Source: Dictyostelium discoideum
Lineage: Eukaryota
DNA: 64,000 bases
NCBI GenBank assembly: GCA_000004695.1
Contig: CM000151.3
Coordinates: 1,120,001-1,184,000, forward strand
Direction of reading: 5' to 3'
Every line of letters begins with the position of its first letter. Position 1 is the stretch's first letter. Both the position numbers and the translations under genes were made by a program. Of this stretch, positions 2,213-64,000 are shown one piece after another. The notes under the pieces are model-generated. The model searched no databases and was not told the DNA's origin. It was given only the letters and a program-made list of their open reading frames with translations.

Positions 2213-2728
2213 TTATTTCATTAATGTAACCACACAATAAATTTTAATAATAATAATAATAATCCCATAAAAAAACAAAAGCGCATTGCCATTCTTCAAC
2301 TTAAATTTAATAATTTACAAACCAAAACTTTTAATCAAAAAACAACACAAAATTTTACTAGAAAATAAAAAGAAAATTTTATTATTGGGGGGAACCCACC
2401 CACTTGTATTTTAGAATTTATTTACTTTTACTTTTTTAATTTATTGTTTTTTTTTTTTTTTTTTTTTTGTGGAAAATTGTGAAAAATATAAAAAAAAAGA
2501 AAGAATATATATCAAATGACCCAACCAAAGATTCAACATTGGTTATTTTTTTTTTTATTTTTTTAATTTCATTTTTTTTCTATTACAAAATGAAAAAATA
2601 AAATTGTAAATTTATCATATTATTTTTAGTTCTATTAATCTTTAAAATTATAATTATATCTTTTAAAAGATATTTTTATTTTCTATTTTTTTTTTTTTTA
2701 TTTTCTAAAGTTTTTCTTTTTTTTTTCT

Positions 2729-2759
<31 letters not shown>

Positions 2760-2813
2760 CACACCACATAAAGTTCAACTTTTGATAATTATTTGAATAG
2801 TACTTCTATTAAA

Positions 2814-3518
2814 ATGTCATATGATTATGATTATATAGTTAAAATTTTAATGATAGGAGATGGGAGTGTTGGGAAAACTTCAACAGTAAGGAGATTTGTT
2901 GATGACGACTTTAAAAAAGAAGAAATTCCAAAAGAAGAGTTTATGATAAAATATATGGAAATTGGTGACTTTGGAGAGAATGAAAATAATAATAATAATA
3001 AAAATAATAAAAATAATAATTATGGTAAAAGAGCAAAATTAATAATAAAAGAAGAAAGATTAGAAAAATATAGAATTGGTAGAAATGAATTTATAAGTTC
3101 AGATGGTTTTTTATTGTTTTTTGATGTAACTGATCGTTCATCATATATAAATTTATCAAATTGGATTGAAGAAATAAAATATAGAACTAGAAGAATCAAT
3201 AATGATGAATTACCACCAATAGTAATAGTAGGAAATAAAATTGATAAAGATGAATACTCAATTATGGTATCCCATGAAGAAGTTAAAGATTTTTGTGATA
3301 CAAGATCAATACCATTTATTTTTATCTCTGCAAAGTTTAATGAAAATGTTGAATTATCATTCACAACTCTCCAAAATTTAATCTTAAAAGAAAAATATTT
3401 TCCAAATGAATTATCGACACCATCATCCTCTTCCTCTTCATTATCTATTAACCTAAATGATGTTAAAACAAATAATAATAATAATAATAATAATAAAGAC
3501 AAATGTAACATAATGTAA
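2814..3518 (+). CDS. Atypical Ras/Rab-like small GTPase with C-terminal CAAX box (CNIM); it has an internal N-rich insert and lacks the canonical DxxGQ G3 motif
   Basis: Single exon. The P-loop is 'KILMIGDGSVGKTS', the NKxD motif is 'GNKID', and 'SAK' is present. It ends '...KDKCNIM*'. The true ATG is at 2814, because the ORF-track start at 2793 is a TTG. The usual DTAGQE is replaced by 'FFDVTDRSSY'. Confidence 0.7.
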   Translation: MSYDYDYIVKILMIGDGSVGKTSTVRRFVDDDFKKEEIPKEEFMIKYMEIGDFGENENNNNNKNNKNNNYGKRAKLIIKEERLEKYRIGRNEFISSDGFLLFFDVTDRSSYINLSNWIEEIKYRTRRINNDELPPIVIVGNKIDKDEYSIMVSHEEVKDFCDTRSIPFIFISAKFNENVELSFTTLQNLILKEKYFPNELSTPSSSSSSLSINLNDVKTNNNNNNNNKDKCNIM

Positions 3519-3881
3519 TATATTAAAAAAACACAAGACATGACATATACAGAATTTTTTTTTTTATTAATTATTAATATTATTATTATTTTTATTATTA
3601 TTATTATTGTTTGAATTATTATTTGAATTAATTATTATTATTTTATGATTAAAGGATGAAAATTAATGGTAAGGAGTGTTTATTTAATGATATGTATTGA
3701 TTTTATGTTGTTATTTGAAGTTGAGAAAGATTTAAATTAAATAGTTTTTTTTTTATTAATTTGTTTTTTTTTTTCATTCTATTTTGGAAACGGATTACCG
3801 ATCATCATCATCATCTGGGTCAATTAAACATAGAATTTCTACTAATGGGAAACCACCTGAAATTGTTTTGGTACATCTGAA

Positions 3882-3882
<1 letters not shown>

Positions 3883-3963
<81 letters not shown>

Positions 3964-3966
3964 GAT
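3883..3966. repeat. (GTT)n microsatellite, about 28 units
   Basis: Perfect GTT tandem run in intergenic DNA. It generates the poly-V and poly-T pseudo-ORFs at 3784-3998. Confidence 0.9.
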
Positions 3967-4337
3967 TTTAAAACAATTATATAAGTAAATTTATACATTG
4001 CAATGTAAATGTGAAAAAAAGGAAAAAAAAAAGAAAAAGATCTAAACTTTATATAGAATTTAAAAATAAAATTAAAAATACTTACCCTATAATATTTGTG
4101 GCATTTCCAGTTGAATTTACAGCTGAACTAAAGTTAGCATATGAACCGAATGATGGAATTGATGATGAGGTGGATGAGGTTGAAGTGGAGGTTGATTTTT
4201 TATTAAAATATTGTGCAAATGATTCTGTTGAAGTTGTTGCTCGGAAATTAAAGCAAACACTTTTTTGTGATGCTTTCACTGCTTTTTGAGCAAATCTAAA
4301 TGATGTATTCATTATTTATCTTTTAGATTATGTTCTG

Positions 4338-4368
<31 letters not shown>

Positions 4369-4559
4369 TGATTCGTTCGTAAAAAAAAAAAAAAAAAAAA
4401 AACAAAAATAAAAAAAAAAATAAAAATAAAAAATAAAAATAATTTCACAACACAACCAAATAAAAAAAAAAAAAAACAAAAAGAATTTTAATTCTAATTT
4501 AACAATTTAATTTTAAAATATTAAATAAAATATTATTTCTTAATCAAAATAAATAAATG

Positions 4560-4593
<34 letters not shown>

Positions 4594-4619
4594 AAGAATT
4601 TTAAATTAAGAATACAATT

Positions 4620-7035
4620 TTATTTACCAAAATTAAAAATATTTTTAAAATTTTTTAATAATCCACCTTTACCACTATTGATATTATTTTTATCATAGTT
4701 TTTTAATAATAATTTACCAAAATCTAATAAATGACGAAATTGATCTTGACTGATATCAAATGAATTTAAAATTTTATATTGATCGTCATTTTTTGAATCA
4801 AATAAATTTTGAATAATTTTTTTATTATCAGGATGATGGGATAGATCAAATCTTGATATTAATTCATTTCCTTTGAGTTTACTTTTAATTAATGATAAAA
4901 GTTTAATTTGAAATAAAATTAAAAAACGATCAGATATTTTATCACCATCATCCAAAGAGGTTTCTGTTGTTGTTGTTATTGTTGTTGTTATTGTTGTTGT
5001 TTCAATTGGTGATTCATATTTAAAAGAATTGAAAAATTCTTTTAAATTTATAATGAATTCAATATATTGATTATCCCAAGATGATACAACTTCTTTTGAA
5101 ATTTGAATTAATAAATTATTGATATTACTTGAATAAGGATTAATATATGGTGGCCAAATTAAAACAATATCATTTGTTAATTCTGAAAGAAAATAAAATA
5201 ATAATTTTAAATTTGAAAATAATTGTATTGGAATATCATAAATGATTTTATATTGATTATTTAATTTTAAATTTAATTTATAAAGTTTACAATATTTTTT
5301 AATTGATTTAAAATCACCACCTTTTAAACAATTTAACATTAATCTACCTAATAAAATTGGATTTAAATTTTCAGATGATTTTTTTAAGCAATTAATAATT
5401 TCATTTGAGTCTTCTTCAGTTGAAATTGGGTCATAAAAATAATTTTCACAAAAGAATTGACTAATCATTTGAGGTAATTCAATAATTTCTGATTTCCATG
5501 AGAAATAAAGTCTTCTAATTTCTAAATTAATTGGTAATGAATTATCATTCAATTTAGAATATAATTTACTTAAAACAATCTCTGGTTCAATTTCGTTATG
5601 TCTAACTTGAATTGCTTTATTTAAAAGTGGTAATATTAAATTAAATAATAATGGATAACCATTTGGATTCTTATCAGTTGGTAATGATTTTGAAATTAAT
5701 ATAATATATAAATTATTTAAACCACCAATATTTGATGCTATTTTATCAGAATAATCTTGATTTTTAATTATAAATTCCACAATATTATCTTGACCCAATT
5801 CAATTGCACTTAATAATTTCTGAATTGTAAATCCAAACTTTTTCAAATAAATTGAAAAGAAATCTAATTGTTTATTCATAAATTTACATTTAAAATGATC
5901 TTTTGAAAGTAAATTTGATTGTAATAATATTAAATTATTTTCTGATAATAATACTTGATTATCTTCATCACCATCACCAACACTACCACTGAGATCTCTA
6001 ATACATCTATAAGTAAATGATATATCTTGATTTGTATTTAATGTAATATTAAGTTTTTTAAATCTTTCTATAACATAATCTGAATAATCTGCTCCATCAA
6101 TTATAGTTTTAGATTTACCAATGAATATTAAACTATTTTCAACTAAGCATTTAAATAATGGAAGCATTACATCATTATTATTAAATGAGTTAATATTAAT
6201 ATCAAGTTTTAAAATTTTATTTGATTCAATTAAAAATCCAAATATTTCTATTAATTCTGAATCTCCATTATATGATTTTCTATTATCAATGTTTAATTTT
6301 GATAAAATTAGTTTTAAAATCTCTAAATTATTCTTTTCAATAAGTTTATTAACTAATAATGAAATTTCACAAAGTTGATCACCTTTAAATACTTGATCAT
6401 CCATTAAATTTAAATATTCCCTATTAATTTGTTGATGTTGTTGAAATTGTTCTTCTGTTAACAATTTTTGTTGTTTTTGTTGTTGTTCAAAATCAATACT
6501 ATTAACATGTCTTGTAAGTTGTTCAATAATCATTGAATTTGAAAGTATAATTCTTTTTTTTGAATCTGAATTTTTAAATAAATAATTAAATAATTCTAAA
6601 GAGAGAGTAGGATTAATTAGATCCATCTCATCATTAAATTTATAATCATTTAATTCTTCATGATATGTGTAATATAGTTTTAATTTTATTGGTGATATAT
6701 TATTTAAATTTATTGATTGCGAAAATCTTTGTTGTAAATCTTTTAAAAAATCATCACCCAATAAGTAATTTAAAAATTCCATATTAATATCACCTTTATT
6801 TAATTTTAAAATTAATTGATTATAGTTTCTAATACTAAATAATTGATCAATTGATTTAATAACTGTTTTAATATAATTTTTAAAAATTTGTAAATCTAAT
6901 TCTTTCCATTCTAAAAATAAATTTAAATCAGATTCTTTATAAATTAAATAATATTTATAAAATTCATTATTATTATTATAATTATAATTATTATAATTAT
7001 AATTATTATAACCATTTTCATTTTGATTTTCATTT

Positions 7036-7086
<51 letters not shown>

Positions 7087-7271
7087 TTTGAATGATAATT
7101 TAATTTTTCTATTAATAGTTGTTGGTTTCTTGTTTTTATAATTAATTCAATTGGTACATCATAAAAATTATATCTTATATATTTCAAATTTTTATTATGT
7201 AATTTTATAAATTTGAAGATTTTTTCTCTCAAATATTTGTTTCTGTAAATAGTTAAGAATAAATCCTCCAT
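4620..7271 (-). CDS. Hypothetical 883-aa protein; N-terminus carries the same 'FxxxxRNKYLRxKIF' motif that heads the FNIP-repeat proteins (F-box-like), followed by no FNIP repeats
   Basis: Uninterrupted ORF starting ATG 7271 (MEDLFLTIYRNKYLREKIFKFIKLH...) and ending TAA at 4620. Codon usage is typical of dictyostelid coding DNA. It contains poly-N and (NNY)n tracts. I recognise no named domain. Confidence 0.6.
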
Positions 7272-12269: not shown

Positions 12270-15083
12270 TTATTTCTTGACATTTTTCTTTTTATTATTA
12301 TTGTTGTTGTTATTATTATTATTGTTATTATTATAATTATTATTATTTTGATTTTGATTTTGATTTATATTATTACAAATTGCTAATGATTTTTTAAAGA
12401 TTGAGTTTGTATCACTTTCATAATCAAAAACTCTAACCAATTTTGAAATTTTCTCCATTAAAGGAATATTATGTAAAATACTTTGATTTTTACTTTCAAT
12501 ATGAATATTTGTTAAAGATTCAGGAAGTGGTAATTGAATAGTTGGTTCACCACGAATTATTAATGTATGAATTGATGGTGGTAACCATTCTTTTGAAATT
12601 ATTGGTTGAATTAAATCCTCTTCTTCATCATCTTCTTCATTTGAATTATTATTATTATTATTATTACTATTATTATTATAATTATAATTATTACTATTAT
12701 TACTACTATATAAATATTTTTCCTGTTGTTTTTGTTGTAGTTGTTGATTATGATTAATTGCTTCTTGTAAAAATGGATGTTGGTGATTATTTGTATCTTC
12801 TTCTTCTTCTTCATTTTCTTGTTCTTCCTCAAGTTCATGTTCATGGTCATCTTGTATACTACCATCATTATTTTCAATTGAATGATCTAATTGTTGTTCA
12901 TTATCTTGTTGTTGTTGTTGTTGTTGTTTTTGTTGTTTTAATTGTTGTAATCTTTGTTGAGCAACTTGTTGTTGTATTTCTAATTGTTTTTGAGCTTGTA
13001 ATGCTTGTTCATTTTGTAATAATTGTTGTTGAGCGTATTGAGCTTGTTGTTCAACAAATATCTCATCAACAATTTCATAAGAGTCAATGAAAGAACGAAC
13101 AAAAGCACATTCTAAAATTAAGAGTGAAGATGGTAATGAATTTTTTAAGAATGGAGTACAAAATGATTTAACTCTTAATGATTTTAAAGTTGATGGTAAG
13201 GAACCAATTGGGATGACCGATGGTAAACAATCAAATTCGAGATTTGTAATTGATTGTGGTGGGAAACAGTTTGGTCCTAATTGATGATTGTAGGCACCAA
13301 TGAATTGAATTGATTTTAGGTTAACTAAATTCTTAAACATTTCTTGACAAATAGGTTTTTCATAACCTCTAAGTTTTAAATGAGTGATTTTTGAGCCCTT
13401 TTTACCAACCATGAAAACGTCAGGACCATCATGTTGTAAATTATTACCAGTGATAATTAATTTAGTAACATTGGATGGAATGTTAATTTCTTTATCCAAT
13501 ACATTTACAATGTTTAAATGTAACGATTCAACAGAACGTGGGAATGTTTCACGACTACTTGAAGATGAGAATGAATTTAAAATTGCACCAATGGTGGAAT
13601 CATCAGATGATAGACTTGGTAGATAATCACCACCACATCGCAACTTTTTAATATTTGAATTTGTACCCAAAGTTACATTCCTTTCTTGGGATCTAAATGA
13701 GAGCAATAGTGTACTTACATTGGATGGAATGTTGTAACCCAATTTCAATGGGAAAATGTATGAACTATTTTGATGAAATTCTAAATGAGTCAAAGAGTCT
13801 GGGAAAACACTTGGTGGTAATGGTTGATTATATCTTGGACCGAATATCATAGTTTTCAAGGAGGAAGGAATCACACCTATCACCAATGGTTGATTGAAAT
13901 GATTATCCAATGTTAATTTAGTCAATGTTGGGGGTAAACAACCAATAGTTAGAATTGGATTTTGTTGAGTACCCCCCAATTGTAACTCTGTCAACCCGAT
14001 TGGTAACGAGCCTATTGGTATGGGCAAACAAAATCTTTGGCCTAATTTCAAGGATTTTATGCCACTTGGTAATGAACCCACCTCAATCGGACGGAAATAC
14101 TCATTTCCAAAAGCCAACTCTGTCAATGACGATGGTAGTAATCCCGCTTCGAATGGTTGATTGAATTTACCACCAGTGTCCAATGAGGTAATTGCCCCGT
14201 CTATTGGCAGCAAGGGCACTATACCCAACTGGCCCTCCAATCTACCCTGCACTAATAACGGGTCGTTGAATGTGGAATTCAATTTCAAAGTTTTCAAATG
14301 TGATGGAATTGATTTGTACCCCAATTTAGTTGGAGATGAAATTGTAAGATTTGTAATGGAAGTTGGGAGAGAGCCTTCCTTAAATATAATTTTATTCAAG
14401 TGTCCTGACAACTCCAATGTGCTCACACCCACCGGCAATGACTTTATTGTCTTAATTAACTCCTCCTCATGTTGTTCATAACCAATTAAATGAACAGATC
14501 TTAAATAACCATAATATTTATAATCTGATAATGAGACGATACCACGAGAAACTTTACCAAAATAATTATGACCAAGATCTTGATGATAATGATTATGAAC
14601 TCTATGACAATTATGTTGTTGTTGTAAATCTGCACCGTTATCAATACAATTATTTAAATCTATACATTTAAAAACTCTCTTATCATAATGTAAATTATGA
14701 ATTCTAACATAACCTAATATTTTATCACGTACAACTTGATTTCTCCAAAGTTCAAAAAATTTACCACTTGTATATGCTGTCATATCTTTATTAAATTTCT
14801 TTGTTGTTTTTGCAATTAATTTATTTGCTTTCTTTTCACCACCTCTATCTATATCATTATTTATACCATTATTTATATTATTATTTATATTACTATTATT
14901 AATTTCATTATTATTATTGATGTTATTGGAATTATTGTTGTTAGCAATATTATTAGTAGTATTATTATTATTATTATTATTATTGGTATTATTAGTTGTA
15001 TTGTTATTTATATTTGCTTGATTATTTGGACTATTATTTATATTATTAACTACTGGTTGTTGAATCGAAATTGGTTGTTGCAT
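12270..15083 (-). CDS. FNIP-repeat protein (937 aa)
   Basis: Single ORF starting ATG 15083. It has at least 12 tandem ~22-aa repeats of the type 'FNQPL..G.LPSSLTELAFGNEYFRPIEVGSLPSGIKSLKLGQRF', the dictyostelid FNIP repeat. It has N-rich termini and a Q/E-rich coiled region. Confidence 0.8.
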   Translation of the reverse strand: MQQPISIQQPVVNNINNSPNNQANINNNTTNNTNNNNNNNNTTNNIANNNNSNNINNNNEINNSNINNNINNGINNDIDRGGEKKANKLIAKTTKKFNKDMTAYTSGKFFELWRNQVVRDKILGYVRIHNLHYDKRVFKCIDLNNCIDNGADLQQQHNCHRVHNHYHQDLGHNYFGKVSRGIVSLSDYKYYGYLRSVHLIGYEQHEEELIKTIKSLPVGVSTLELSGHLNKIIFKEGSLPTSITNLTISSPTKLGYKSIPSHLKTLKLNSTFNDPLLVQGRLEGQLGIVPLLPIDGAITSLDTGGKFNQPFEAGLLPSSLTELAFGNEYFRPIEVGSLPSGIKSLKLGQRFCLPIPIGSLPIGLTELQLGGTQQNPILTIGCLPPTLTKLTLDNHFNQPLVIGVIPSSLKTMIFGPRYNQPLPPSVFPDSLTHLEFHQNSSYIFPLKLGYNIPSNVSTLLLSFRSQERNVTLGTNSNIKKLRCGGDYLPSLSSDDSTIGAILNSFSSSSSRETFPRSVESLHLNIVNVLDKEINIPSNVTKLIITGNNLQHDGPDVFMVGKKGSKITHLKLRGYEKPICQEMFKNLVNLKSIQFIGAYNHQLGPNCFPPQSITNLEFDCLPSVIPIGSLPSTLKSLRVKSFCTPFLKNSLPSSLLILECAFVRSFIDSYEIVDEIFVEQQAQYAQQQLLQNEQALQAQKQLEIQQQVAQQRLQQLKQQKQQQQQQQDNEQQLDHSIENNDGSIQDDHEHELEEEQENEEEEEDTNNHQHPFLQEAINHNQQLQQKQQEKYLYSSNNSNNYNYNNNSNNNNNNNSNEEDDEEEDLIQPIISKEWLPPSIHTLIIRGEPTIQLPLPESLTNIHIESKNQSILHNIPLMEKISKLVRVFDYESDTNSIFKKSLAICNNINQNQNQNNNNYNNNNNNNNNNNNNKKKNVKK

Positions 15084-26549: not shown

Positions 26550-27787
26550 TTAAAATTTGGATTTTTCAAATATTACTTTTTCTTCATACTCTTTTTTATA
26601 TCCAAATTCTTTTTTGATATTAATTATTTTACATTTTTTAATATTATTATTATTATTATTTGATAAAATTAATTCAAATAATGAAATTAAATTTGAAAAA
26701 TCTTTAAGGGCAGGGGGATGGAAAAAAGTTGTAATTTGAAATTCTGATATTAATTTATTGTTTGAAAGGACATTTTTAAATATTGTTGATGGTAATAAAA
26801 TATTATTAAAACTTAATTTCTCTAATGAATTTATTGATGAAATTAATAATGAAAAATTATTTATAAATGAATTATTAATTTGTAAATGTTTATCAAGATT
26901 ATTTTGGAAAATACCAGTTTTATTAACACATAAGTGACCAATTTCCAAAGACTTTATAGTTTCATTTAATTTTAATAAATTTAAAATTTCATACCATTGA
27001 TTTTTATATTTAGATTTTTCTTTAAAAGTACCAAAACTGTAGCAATTACAACAACGATTTTGACCATTATCATTTTCATGAATTTCATCATTATCATCGT
27101 CATTTAAAAAGTATAATAATTTATAAAAACAAAAATTAATTGAAATTGTTTTTAATTTTGGGATTTCGTTTAAACAAATTTTAAATTCATTAAATGTGAT
27201 TATACCTCTCATTTTAATATGTTCAATATTTGATATTAATGATGAGTCTATTGTTGATAAAATTTCAATGATTGGATATGAAATTGATTTACTTTGAGAA
27301 ATATCAGTTTCAATCATTTTTATTGATTTATTATAATGTTGGAGAGTTGATGCAATATTTTTAAAATTATCTTTATATCTTTCACCTCCAATTTTAATTG
27401 AAAATAATTTATCAATTAAATCATATGATGATGGTGATAATTTATCAATCTCCGTATCCATATCATTGAATTCATATTGATATAAATGAATTTTTTTAAA
27501 ATGATTTTTTAAATTTACCATCATTTCTTTAGGTGGTGTACATGATTGATGATACATTGGTGGTCTATAATATGGGAGTAAAGGTACATTTCTAATTACT
27601 AAATTATTGATTTTATCATCATTACCATCATTATTATTATTATTATTTTGTTGTTTAAATTTGTTTAATTGATTGATTAAATCATCAATATAATATGTTT
27701 TAGGTTGTATTAATTTAAATATATTTATACCAAAATAAAAATAATCATTTAATTTACTATAATTTATTTTTAATGTTTTTATAATTG

Positions 27788-27860
<73 letters not shown>

Positions 27861-28085
27861 TATTTTAAATATATTGGTAATATTATCAATTGAAATATAA
27901 TTATTCCATTCATGTGAAACTAATCTTAAATTTAGAGATAATTTATCTAAAATAAAATCAATTTCACCTCCTCCATTTATTTCAATATCTTTTTTTATTT
28001 TATTTATTTCTAAACATAAAAAATTTAAAATATATCTTTGTATATAAATTGAAAAAATACAAGTATTATTATTATTTTTGATCAT
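26550..28085 (-). CDS. Hypothetical 511-aa protein, N-rich, no recognised domain
   Basis: Single uninterrupted ORF running from ATG 28085 to TAA 26550, with a poly-N tract and coding-like composition. Confidence 0.55.
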
Positions 28086-30555: not shown

Positions 30556-38821
<8,266 letters not shown>

Positions 38822-39048: not shown

Positions 39049-40899
39049 TTAATCAATAATTTTTAAAATATTATAAAGATTATGATTTAAACAATAATTT
39101 ATAAATTTAACATTTGAATATTTACAATAAATCTCATTTAGAGAATTTGGAAGTGATAGTATTTTAATTGAAGTTGATTTTGTGTTATTTATATACAATG
39201 TGGTAATAGTTTGTGGAAGTGAATATCTATCTAGAATTAATTCACGTTCTCCTGTGTAGGTTATATGTAATGATTTTAATTTTCTTGGGAAAATTGTGTG
39301 TTTTAGAGTTGAAATATCGAATAAGAAATTAAAAGAAATTTGCTCCACTGTTTCTGGTATTTTGAATAGATTAAATGTTGTGATATAAAAATAATCAAAT
39401 TCAATATTTACAATTGGTGTTGATGATTTTATTGAATATGGTAATCCTTGAAGTTTCTTTTGGTCAGATTTCACAATCACTGATGGTGATAGATTTGTTT
39501 TGAAAATGATTTTAGAGATTGGTAAATTTTGATCAAGATATTGAGGATTTGATTCAGTTATACTAATTACAAAGTTTTCCAAAGTCGATGGTAAATATTT
39601 GGCAATCATACTTCTTTTATATCTTTTAAATAGGTGAAGGGTTTTTAAATTTGGTGGTAATATATTTGGTTTATCAAATGGTTGATCGAATCTAGTACTT
39701 TCTCTAAGATCTAAATAAGTGAGAGATTGAGGTAATAATGATTCTTCATTACCACCTGTTGCTGTTGTTGTTGTTGAATCAATAAAAGGTTGGTCAAAAT
39801 TATGACCAAAAGTAATTGATTCTACATTTGTTGATTTTAAAAATCCAATGGGTCTATTATACATATATCCAAATATTATCTTTTTCAAAGTTGGTGGTAT
39901 TGATGATTCTTTAATTTCACTATTGAAATGGAATGAAAAAGTTATTGATGTTAAAAATGGTGGAAGTGAATCAATATTTTGATTAAATAATCTACCAAAT
40001 CTTAAAGATTTTAGTGATGTTAATTTTGACATATTTGATAACTTTTGATTAAATATACCACCAAAACGAATAGATTCTAAAGAAGATGGTAATTTTCCTA
40101 ATGATTTTAATTTACCATTAAAATATTCACCCAATTCTAAAACTTTTAAATTTTTTAATGATTTATCATCATTTTCTTCATTATCATAATCTTCTTTTTG
40201 TTGTTCTATAGCTCTACCACTACTTTTAAATGATGGTAATAATTTAAAAAATAAAGATGATGATCTTTTTCTTTTTGATTGTTTTGAAAAAATCATTTTA
40301 TTAAATGATGGACCAAGTTTTAAAGTTTCTAAACTTGTTGGTAGTACACCATATTGTATCTTTTGATTATAGGCATGTCCAAATTCTAAAGAAGTTAAAG
40401 ATTTTGGAAGTTGAGATGGCTTTAATGGTTGATTAAAGAAATTACCAAATACTAAAGTCTTTAAATTCACTAAACATTGGAAATCAATTGGCTGATTAAA
40501 CGATTCACCAAGTACAAGTGACGTTAAGGATTCTTTAACTGATAGCATTGGAAGGGTGTAGCATACTATTGGTTGGTCGAATTTCTCGCCAAATTTAATC
40601 GATCGGATAGAAGATACTGATACTGAGGGTAGAGTCTTGTTGTAATCTTTTTCACTCTCTAAAATTTCAATATTTGGTAAAGAGTTTAATAGAGTATTCA
40701 ATAATTGTTGATCTTGTTCTTGATAATCTTTTATTAAAATACTTCTTAAATACTCTTTCATTGGGTATTTAGCTAATGATTCTATGGTAAACTCTTGAGT
40801 ATGATAATTATTATTATATAATCTAACATGATGGAAGATTTGTTTTTTTAAATATTTATTTCTAAAAACTTTAAAAAATAATTTTTCTTGGATTTCCAT
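39049..40899 (-). CDS. FNIP-repeat protein (616 aa)
   Basis: Single ORF 'MEIQEKLFFKVFRNKYLKKQIFHHV...' followed by tandem FNIP repeats ('FGEKFDQPIVCYTLPMLSVKESLTSLVLGESFNQPIDFQCLVNLKTLVFGNFFNQPLKPSQLPKSLTSLEFGHAYNQKI...'). Confidence 0.8.
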   Translation of the reverse strand: MEIQEKLFFKVFRNKYLKKQIFHHVRLYNNNYHTQEFTIESLAKYPMKEYLRSILIKDYQEQDQQLLNTLLNSLPNIEILESEKDYNKTLPSVSVSSIRSIKFGEKFDQPIVCYTLPMLSVKESLTSLVLGESFNQPIDFQCLVNLKTLVFGNFFNQPLKPSQLPKSLTSLEFGHAYNQKIQYGVLPTSLETLKLGPSFNKMIFSKQSKRKRSSSLFFKLLPSFKSSGRAIEQQKEDYDNEENDDKSLKNLKVLELGEYFNGKLKSLGKLPSSLESIRFGGIFNQKLSNMSKLTSLKSLRFGRLFNQNIDSLPPFLTSITFSFHFNSEIKESSIPPTLKKIIFGYMYNRPIGFLKSTNVESITFGHNFDQPFIDSTTTTATGGNEESLLPQSLTYLDLRESTRFDQPFDKPNILPPNLKTLHLFKRYKRSMIAKYLPSTLENFVISITESNPQYLDQNLPISKIIFKTNLSPSVIVKSDQKKLQGLPYSIKSSTPIVNIEFDYFYITTFNLFKIPETVEQISFNFLFDISTLKHTIFPRKLKSLHITYTGERELILDRYSLPQTITTLYINNTKSTSIKILSLPNSLNEIYCKYSNVKFINYCLNHNLYNILKIID

Positions 40900-59281: not shown

Positions 59282-61834
<2,553 letters not shown>

Positions 61835-63611: not shown

Positions 63612-64000
63612 TTATTTATAAAGATATTTGAAAGGAGGTATAAAACAATTTTTGAAAGAAACATTTTCAAAACCTTTTAAATAAATAGTATTTGTTGATT
63701 CAGTTTTAAAAAAATGACGAACAGTTGATGGAATAGTTGAATAGTCTAAAGTGGTTTTAATATTTCCAATATATAAATAACATACACTACTTGGTATTAA
63801 TGATTTGGTGTTATTGGTTGTCATTGATGAGAAAGGTGTGATTGAATTTGAGTCACATGATGATGTAGTTAAAGATTGATTAAAACCATCCAATAATATA
63901 ATACCCATGGTAGTATTTGGTATTGATCCCTCTATCAGTGTATTATCACCAATTTCACCTAAAAATATATATTTCAATGGGGGCATTAAACTTGGTAGTA
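63612..64000 (-). CDS. FNIP-repeat protein, 3' portion (the gene continues beyond the window end)
   Basis: '...LPSLMPPLKYIFLGEIGDNTLIEGSIPNTTMGIILLDGFNQSLTTS...YLYIGNIKTTL..IPSTVRHFF' has FNIP-repeat character (LP.SL..L.FG..FNQ.L). The frame stays open upstream of the ATG at 63986 and up to nt 64000, so the N-terminal exon or exons are outside the window. Confidence 0.5.
   Translation of the reverse strand, partial: LPSLMPPLKYIFLGEIGDNTLIEGSIPNTTMGIILLDGFNQSLTTSSCDSNSITPFSSMTTNNTKSLIPSSVCYLYIGNIKTTLDYSTIPSTVRHFFKTESTNTIYLKGFENVSFKNCFIPPFKYLYK

Follow-up and report, generated by a model that had tools for sequence, protein, structure and literature searches.

Results and Discussion

Minus-strand genes of the window and a shared N-terminal element

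The stretch of DNA analyzed here (the window; 64,000 nucleotides, positions 1,120,001 to 1,184,000 of contig CM000151.3, assembly GCA_000004695.1) belongs to chromosome 2 of Dictyostelium discoideum AX4 and has a G+C content of ~20%. Its minus strand encodes, among others, an orphan protein of 883 amino acids (aa), referred to below as W883, and two leucine-rich-repeat (LRR) proteins of the FNIP-repeat type, 616 and 937 aa long. The subject of this report is a predicted helical hairpin that the three proteins have in common and the ~60-residue N-terminal domain of which it is part (Table 1). Among the gene families of Dictyostelium, that of the FNIP-repeat proteins is one of the largest, and to our knowledge almost none of its members has a known function.

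An earlier note on this DNA had drawn attention to a pattern shared by the N termini of W883 and the 616-aa protein. The N-terminal sequences that it quoted for the two proteins are correct, and every gene that it named is carried by the minus strand. The 616-aa open reading frame (ORF) is identical to DDB_G0272066. The Pfam FNIP family (PF05725) matched DDB_G0272066 with an E value of 3.7e-47 (158.7 bits) and the 937-aa protein with an E value of 1.6e-50 (169.4 bits), so that both are indeed FNIP genes, as claimed; however, the "three more FNIP genes" of the earlier note included DDB_G0272066 counted twice, and the fragment that exits the window scored 15.6 bits against a cutoff of 21. A regular-expression search of all six frames recovered the motif in W883 and DDB_G0272066, the two carriers already named, and in the 937-aa protein, which had been overlooked. 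There an Asn-rich leader of ~100 residues precedes the motif, which lies at residue 109, and a His/Gln-rich insertion splits the N-terminal domain into two halves. A further regular-expression match, at 33447 to 33491, was spurious and noncoding and falls in the gap between two plus-strand ORFs (30556 to 33420 and 33503 to 38821).

W883 was correctly described as a protein without FNIP repeats: it had no Pfam match at an E value of ≤1. A local hidden Markov model (HMM) of FGxxFN-type repeats scored it at -19.7 bits, but this HMM is narrow and also misses the 937-aa FNIP protein. A whole-protein search with W883 returned one paralog in D. discoideum, P0001 (855 aa), which had no FNIP match at an E value of ≤1; poly-Asn words probably dominated candidate selection in this search, and orthologs of other species were thus not recovered. 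A profile search with the alignment of this two-member family against PDB sequences returned nothing relevant. The two paralogs are 74% identical over residues 1 to 62 and 37% identical over residues 105 to 883, and the poly-Asn segment of W883 lies between this conserved N-terminal module and the body of the protein. No FNIP gene was found within 10 kb on either side of P0001 (locus L001), and the orphan family that bears the hairpin is therefore not just a component of FNIP clusters. The neighbors of P0001 are a 945-aa gene (2479 to 5316 of the locus, plus strand) without a Pfam match and a ComC-type LRR/EGF gene.

Homology of the W883 and FNIP N termini

To the N termini of 157 FNIP proteins, with the W883 family left out, we fitted a profile (the FNIP-only profile). 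W883 matched its positions 3 to 35 with 22.5 bits (34.2 bits without composition correction; i-Evalue of 6.7e-5 for 13,000 proteins), and P0001 matched positions 3 to 37 with 13.1 bits (25.4 bits uncorrected). Decoys consisted of two sets of 13,000 sequences, one of random sequences with Dictyostelium composition and one of locally shuffled real proteins; the highest score reached by any of them was 11.6 bits with the correction and 21.8 bits without it. Profile-profile alignment agreed with these scores. With hhalign, the W883 family aligned to FNIP N termini over 29 columns with 45% identity and an E value of 3.3e-5 (W883 residues 2 to 30), and its N terminus aligned to the 157-sequence profile over 38 columns with a probability of 95.7% and an E value of 9.7e-9. 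On this basis, the motif shared by the two families very probably represents homologous sequence, with domain identity as defined here, and the shared element proposed in the earlier note is real.

Resemblance by chance or composition would be the alternative, since the AT-rich Dictyostelium proteome contains the residues concerned (K, N, I, F, Y, and L) in abundance. The HMMER bias correction did take ~12 bits off each W883-family score, and the regular expression gave one spurious match in the window. Yet none of the 26,000 decoys reached the score of W883 or P0001, whether bias corrected or not; the match sits at the extreme N terminus in both families; and no other ORF of the window or of locus L001 scored above 12.1 bits. 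The earlier note had itself named failure to exceed chance as grounds for giving up the motif, and with an HMM of FNIP N termini W883 stands above every decoy. Together with the hhalign result, the decoys and the other ORFs effectively refute the chance explanation, which we consider extremely improbable.

Table 1. Minus-strand genes, domain segments, and sequence features in the 64,000-nucleotide window
Feature	Coordinates	Strand	Evidence or remarks
W883, 883-aa orphan protein	4620..7271	-	Starts MEDLFLTIYRNKYLREKIFKFIKLH; no FNIP repeats
Shared hairpin motif of W883, residues 2-30 (EDLFLTIYRNKYLREKIFKFIKLHNKNLK)	7182..7268	-	hhalign, HMM alignment, DSSP
Conserved N-terminal module of W883, residues 1-62	7086..7271	-	Paralog identity
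Asn-rich low-complexity linker of W883, residues 65-104	6960..7079	-	Read from sequence
DDB_G0272066, FNIP-repeat LRR protein, 616 aa	39049..40899	-	Starts MEIQEKLFFKVFRNKYLKKQIFHHVRLY; Pfam FNIP
Complete N-terminal domain of DDB_G0272066, residues 5-62	40714..40887	-	79.7 bits, FNIP N-terminal profile
FNIP-repeat protein, 937 aa, Asn-rich leader	12270..15083	-	Pfam FNIP
937-aa protein, first half of domain, residues 109-146 (FFELWRNQVVRDKILGYVRIHNLHYDKRVF...)	14646..14759	-	34.3 bits; regular-expression match
937-aa protein, second half of domain, residues 166-204 (...SLSDYKYYGYLRSVHL...)	14472..14588	-	11.9 bits, profile positions 20-58
Probable C-terminal end of a further FNIP gene, exits window	63612..63986	-	Weak Pfam FNIP match

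Extent and distribution of the domain

The consensus of the 157-sequence profile is dkLFFKiWRNkyikneIlkhlrlYnihkkkkffsieelknYkyKeYlksi. The hairpin (~30 residues; LFFKiWRN-kyLrneIfkhLrlYN), with an invariant Arg-Asn at the turn, makes up the first half of the ~60-residue domain. In W883 the invariant residues correspond to L4, F5, Y9 (where FNIP proteins have Trp), R10, N11, and I18. DDB_G0272066 matches profile positions 2 to 59, and the match of the 937-aa protein is broken into two. Matches of the W883 family are confined to the first ~35 to 38 positions of the profile, which indicates that this family has the hairpin and not the whole domain.

A search for FNIP proteins yielded 102 relatives. 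The element was located near the N terminus in 37 of the 39 that come from named group-4 Dictyostelium species (D. discoideum, D. citrinum, D. firmibasis, D. dimigraforme, and D. purpureum), and the remaining two are truncated or degenerate; it was absent from all eight FNIP proteins of Cavenderia, Heterostelium, Tieghemostelium, and Polysphondylium. A library-wide profile search with 27 N termini against 1.84 billion representative proteins, clustered at 50% identity, gave 128 clusters at an E value of ≤1e-3 and nine at ≤1e-10, with matches covering positions 1 to ~60, and all 10 of the matches sampled came from group-4 Dictyostelium. An alignment of four N-terminal sequences gave no matches in a word-indexed database search. 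By its sequence distribution, the domain is specific to group-4 Dictyostelium, where it heads essentially every FNIP-type LRR protein.

When 40 carriers of the full domain, picked as the least FNIP-like or for their long N-terminal extensions, were scanned with Pfam, all 40 proved to be FNIP proteins and none had an F-box. The only non-FNIP carriers found were W883 and P0001, with the hairpin alone. The suggestion in the earlier note that a modular element moves between dictyostelid families is accordingly borne out to a small extent, by the hairpin of these two proteins, and not by the full domain. No Pfam family covers the domain, either in whole proteins or in 27 isolated N termini, and we found no paper that treats it as a family-wide domain. 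The nearest prior statement is a per-protein assignment in the supplement of Boland et al. 2022 (PMC9485057), in which the segments marked as "F-box-like sequences" in DDB_G0293774, DDB_G0272482, and DDB_G0268782 coincide with the domain. Those segments were presented as individual, speculative F-box candidates, however, and that paper describes no family-wide domain, restriction to group 4, or W883 family. The sequence profile obtained here is ready for use in annotating this uncurated domain.

In a subfamily of Dictyostelium FNIP proteins (P0140, P0154, P0159, P0160, P0162, P0174, P0179, P0186, P0187, P0196, and P0215), the LFFKiWRN domain is preceded by an extra conserved N-terminal extension of ~140 to 200 residues (ME..LF.WL...L..IL.LS.NGL.IS...) without a Pfam match. 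The idea that this extension is an upstream F-box was rejected (hhalign E values of 0.36 to 0.52; no Pfam F-box).

Comparison with F-boxes

The earlier note had likened the shared pattern to a degenerate F-box, and this part of its account did not hold in any of our comparisons. None of the 27 isolated N termini matched a Pfam F-box family at an E value of ≤10, nor did the whole proteins at ≤1, and a profile search of the N-terminal alignment against all PDB sequences returned nothing. Pfam detection of F-boxes was controlled within the window by DDB_G0272020, a gene listed in a published F-box table (PMC9485057). Its two ORFs (59282 to 59953 and 60140 to 61834, plus strand) leave between them a short gap that is probably an intron, and it has a canonical F-box (PF00646, E value of 2e-7, ~59693 to 59812) and ankyrin repeats (Ank_2, E value of 9e-44).

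Profile-profile comparison with alignments of canonical, Dictyostelium, and FNIP-associated F-boxes gave hhalign probabilities of 0.2 to 0.6% and E values of 0.1 to 0.35, similar to those of a reversed-profile control (E values of 0.55 to 0.65). As a positive control, F-box-like N termini of non-Dictyostelium FNIP proteins aligned to canonical F-boxes at 95% (E value of 4e-8). The best F-box match of the 157-sequence profile, against four FNIP F-boxes from dictyostelids outside group 4, had an E value of 0.022 and a probability of 2.2%. It places helix 2 of the domain on helix 1 of the F-box, the register implied in the earlier note, and is not significant among ~15 comparisons. Even a single divergent F-box-like sequence, that of DDB_G0272060, does better (hhalign E values of 0.003 to 0.015). 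DDB_G0272060 corresponds to a 511-aa ORF of the window (26550 to 28085, minus strand) in which NLRLVSHEWNNYIS (~27891 to 27932) aligns to F-box helices 2 and 3; Pfam found no F-box in it. The protein has an LRR-like body and a predicted split F-box and was reported as a Skp1 interactor by coimmunoprecipitation (co-IP) from vegetative cells (Boland et al. 2022, PMC9485057).

The domain consensus has neither the Leu-Pro that precedes helix 1 of F-boxes nor the hydrophobic/Cys-Lys-x-Trp signature of helix 3 (VCKxW), and the three-helix fold of 40 to 50 residues is not what AlphaFold2 predicts, namely, two helices followed by LRR-type strands. Since the domain lacks each testable sequence feature of F-boxes and is predicted to have a different secondary structure, the label F-box is not justified for it. 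Two other readings of the helix were dropped from the sequence pattern: a BC-box or SOCS-box, for which the required small residue is absent, and a mitochondrial presequence, in view of the acidic residues present.

Predicted structure

Residues 1 to 190 of DDB_G0272066 were modeled with AlphaFold2 from the 27-sequence alignment, with a mean predicted local distance difference test (pLDDT) score of 87.9 and values of ~90 over residues 11 to 60. The model has a helix at residues 2 to 13, a break at R13-N14, and a second helix at residues 15 to 30. This hairpin is followed by a strand (residues 35 to 37), a short helix (39 to 43), another strand (53 to 56), and a helix (61 to 73), with further LRR-type strands every ~20 residues. 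In the order of its secondary-structure elements and in model confidence, DDB_G0272066 resembles an LRR protein with an N-terminal cap, that is, a helical element right before the first strand rung. The corresponding W883 model, from a two-sequence alignment, had a mean pLDDT of 34.8 and is unusable as a structure; it is all-alpha, the poly-Asn segment is modeled without secondary structure, and DSSP assigned to this low-confidence model a helix at residues 2 to 10, a kink at R10-N11, and a helix at residues 12 to 25.

The arrangement recalls FBXL-type receptors such as Skp2 (PF00646/PF12937/PF18511), in which a short N-terminal helical element is likewise followed by irregular and then regular LRRs. 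The FBXL-type F-box differs in having three short helices, compared with two long predicted ones in the Dictyostelium domain, and the latter shows no profile or profile-profile similarity to it, no Leu-Pro start, and no CKxW. FNIP proteins of Megavirus/Mimivirus, Heterostelium, and Tieghemostelium share with those of Dictyostelium the PF05725 repeats and the order of N-terminal module and FNIP LRRs, but their N-terminal modules are detectable F-boxes. Among LRR caps, that of CroV539 (PDB 7zal) is a 15-residue element, whereas the Dictyostelium domain is ~60 residues long and includes irregular rungs. In contrast to such caps, the Dictyostelium domain is also far more conserved than the repeats, and its hairpin occurs in addition on a protein that has no LRR, where a flexible linker sets it off.

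Possible role in Skp1 docking

Pfam F-boxes were detected N-terminal to the FNIP repeats in P0035 and P0071 (both from Heterostelium album) and in P0093 (a short contig), and many Megavirus FNIP proteins have N-terminal F-boxes (Huyton et al., PMC9525666). The three proteins whose domain segment was marked as F-box-like by Boland et al. 2022 were recovered there by Skp1 co-IP (Fig. S3; PMC9485057), DDB_G0293774 from both vegetative and slug stages and DDB_G0272482 and DDB_G0268782 from the vegetative stage. We scored the fragments printed in that figure against the FNIP-only profile and obtained 41.9 bits for DDB_G0293774, 30.0 bits for DDB_G0272482, and 20.7 bits for DDB_G0268782, and some carriers of the domain, like FBXL-type receptors, thus copurify with Skp1. 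By this analogy, recruitment to Skp1-cullin-F-box (SCF) complexes through the domain is plausible, and the role remains putative. Two further observations favor an adaptor role: F-box and domain were not seen together in any protein, and the N-terminal module of W883 is autonomous in its conservation.

The best explanation of these observations, and one that we somewhat favor, is that the hairpin is homologous across both families, is not an F-box, and serves protein docking in addition to capping. In FNIP proteins, as modeled, it adjoins the LRR solenoid at the N-terminal end, and the second half of the domain forms the two or three irregular rungs that come next; it occupies the place that a true F-box holds in the FNIP proteins found in other dictyostelids and in giant-virus-like metagenomic contigs. 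In W883 and P0001, the hairpin lies within a separately conserved 62-residue module, joined by the poly-Asn linker to a body modeled as all-alpha. It most likely docks other proteins too, since its strong conservation extends to proteins that offer no LRR for it to cap, and Skp1 would be the best candidate partner. Of the functional readings, the most attractive, in light of the three copurifying proteins and the analogy with F-box receptors, is direct docking to Skp1 by what would be either a derived F-box or a substitute for one, although we judge it possible rather than probable. It is doubtful, but conceivable, that the domain is specifically a lineage-restricted module for docking to Skp1 and took the place of the canonical F-box in group-4 Dictyostelium.

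Several points weigh against a docking role. A plain LRR N-terminal cap would account just as well for the AlphaFold2 topology. The link between hairpin and Skp1 is one of copurification and may be indirect, and three or four FNIP-type proteins among 92 Skp1 interactors represent a modest enrichment in a genome with many FNIP genes. We infer that the N-terminal module of W883 is an independent folding unit from its conservation pattern and the linker alone, and the count of non-FNIP carriers (at least two) is a lower bound, since hairpin-only carriers would score too low for the E-value limit of the library-wide search.

A rival reading is a purely structural cap, in which the hairpin would shield the hydrophobic end of the LRR without binding a partner, its conservation would result from a folding constraint on caps while the repeats diversify, and the Skp1 copurifications would be indirect or would involve substrates. 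AlphaFold2 places the hairpin with high confidence right before the first LRR-type strands, no test gave an F-box signal, the full domain was found only alongside FNIP repeats, and CroV539, too, is capped at its N terminus by a short module (PMC9525666). A pure cap accounts well for the hairpin in FNIP proteins but not in W883: W883 and P0001 start with the hairpin and yet have no LRR. In W883 the hairpin cannot cap an LRR, since the protein has none and the module is followed by a poly-Asn linker of ~40 residues. The W883 module is conserved twice as strongly as the rest of the protein, and three domain carriers were present in Skp1 pulldowns. We accordingly regard the purely structural cap, and with it a mere folding constraint as the source of conservation, as a minority possibility that deserves to be taken seriously.

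An extremely diverged true F-box, with canonical Skp1 binding, as implied in the earlier note and by the assignments of Boland et al., seems unlikely. In this reading, helix 2 of the domain (RNkyLrneIfkhL) would derive from F-box helix 1 (LPxEILxxIfxxL) and the segment after it from F-box helices 2 and 3. Such a descent would account for the position of the domain, which is that of true F-boxes in the FNIP proteins of other lineages, for the mutual exclusivity of F-box and domain in all proteins that we examined, and for the published F-box-like assignment of the domain segment in three proteins that copurify with Skp1; the best, nonsignificant hhalign register also has helix 2 on F-box helix 1. 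Yet hhalign probabilities did not exceed 2.2% in ~15 comparisons, no Pfam F-box matched at an E value of ≤10, the Leu-Pro start and the VCKxW signature are missing from the consensus, and helix 2 is followed in the prediction by a strand, a short helix, and a strand rather than by two helices. A further hint comes from the FNIP protein DDB_G0289995, in which an F-box annotated by UniProt is directly followed by "NIFYKVWR" in Fig. S3 (PMC9485057), a segment that matches positions 3 to 10 of our profile. F-box and hairpin motif may therefore stand in series in this protein. If this tandem is real, the hairpin would be a post-F-box cap rather than an F-box.

The domain, its F-box-equivalent position, and the three Skp1 copurifiers together lead to a testable hypothesis, that members of the FNIP family are substrate receptors of ubiquitin ligases. 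If the docking module did replace the F-box, all products of the FNIP expansion would be SCF substrate receptors, the hairpin-only W883 family would be a further, non-LRR class of receptor, and the SCF receptor repertoire of Dictyostelium would approach plant and nematode scale. The size of the expansion is uncertain, with 128 clusters at 50% identity in our search compared to a published count of 557 FNIP sequences in the genus. Should the domain be merely a structural cap, its recognition would still be of use for annotation but biologically ordinary.

Other genes of the window

An exact-sequence lookup of a neighboring 171-aa gene returned no record. The two plus-strand ORFs that flank the spurious regular-expression match (954 and 1,772 aa) are ~80 bases apart and are probably one gene with an intron. 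Cys/His patterns resembling PHD-type zinc fingers occur at the junction of these ORFs and near the C terminus.

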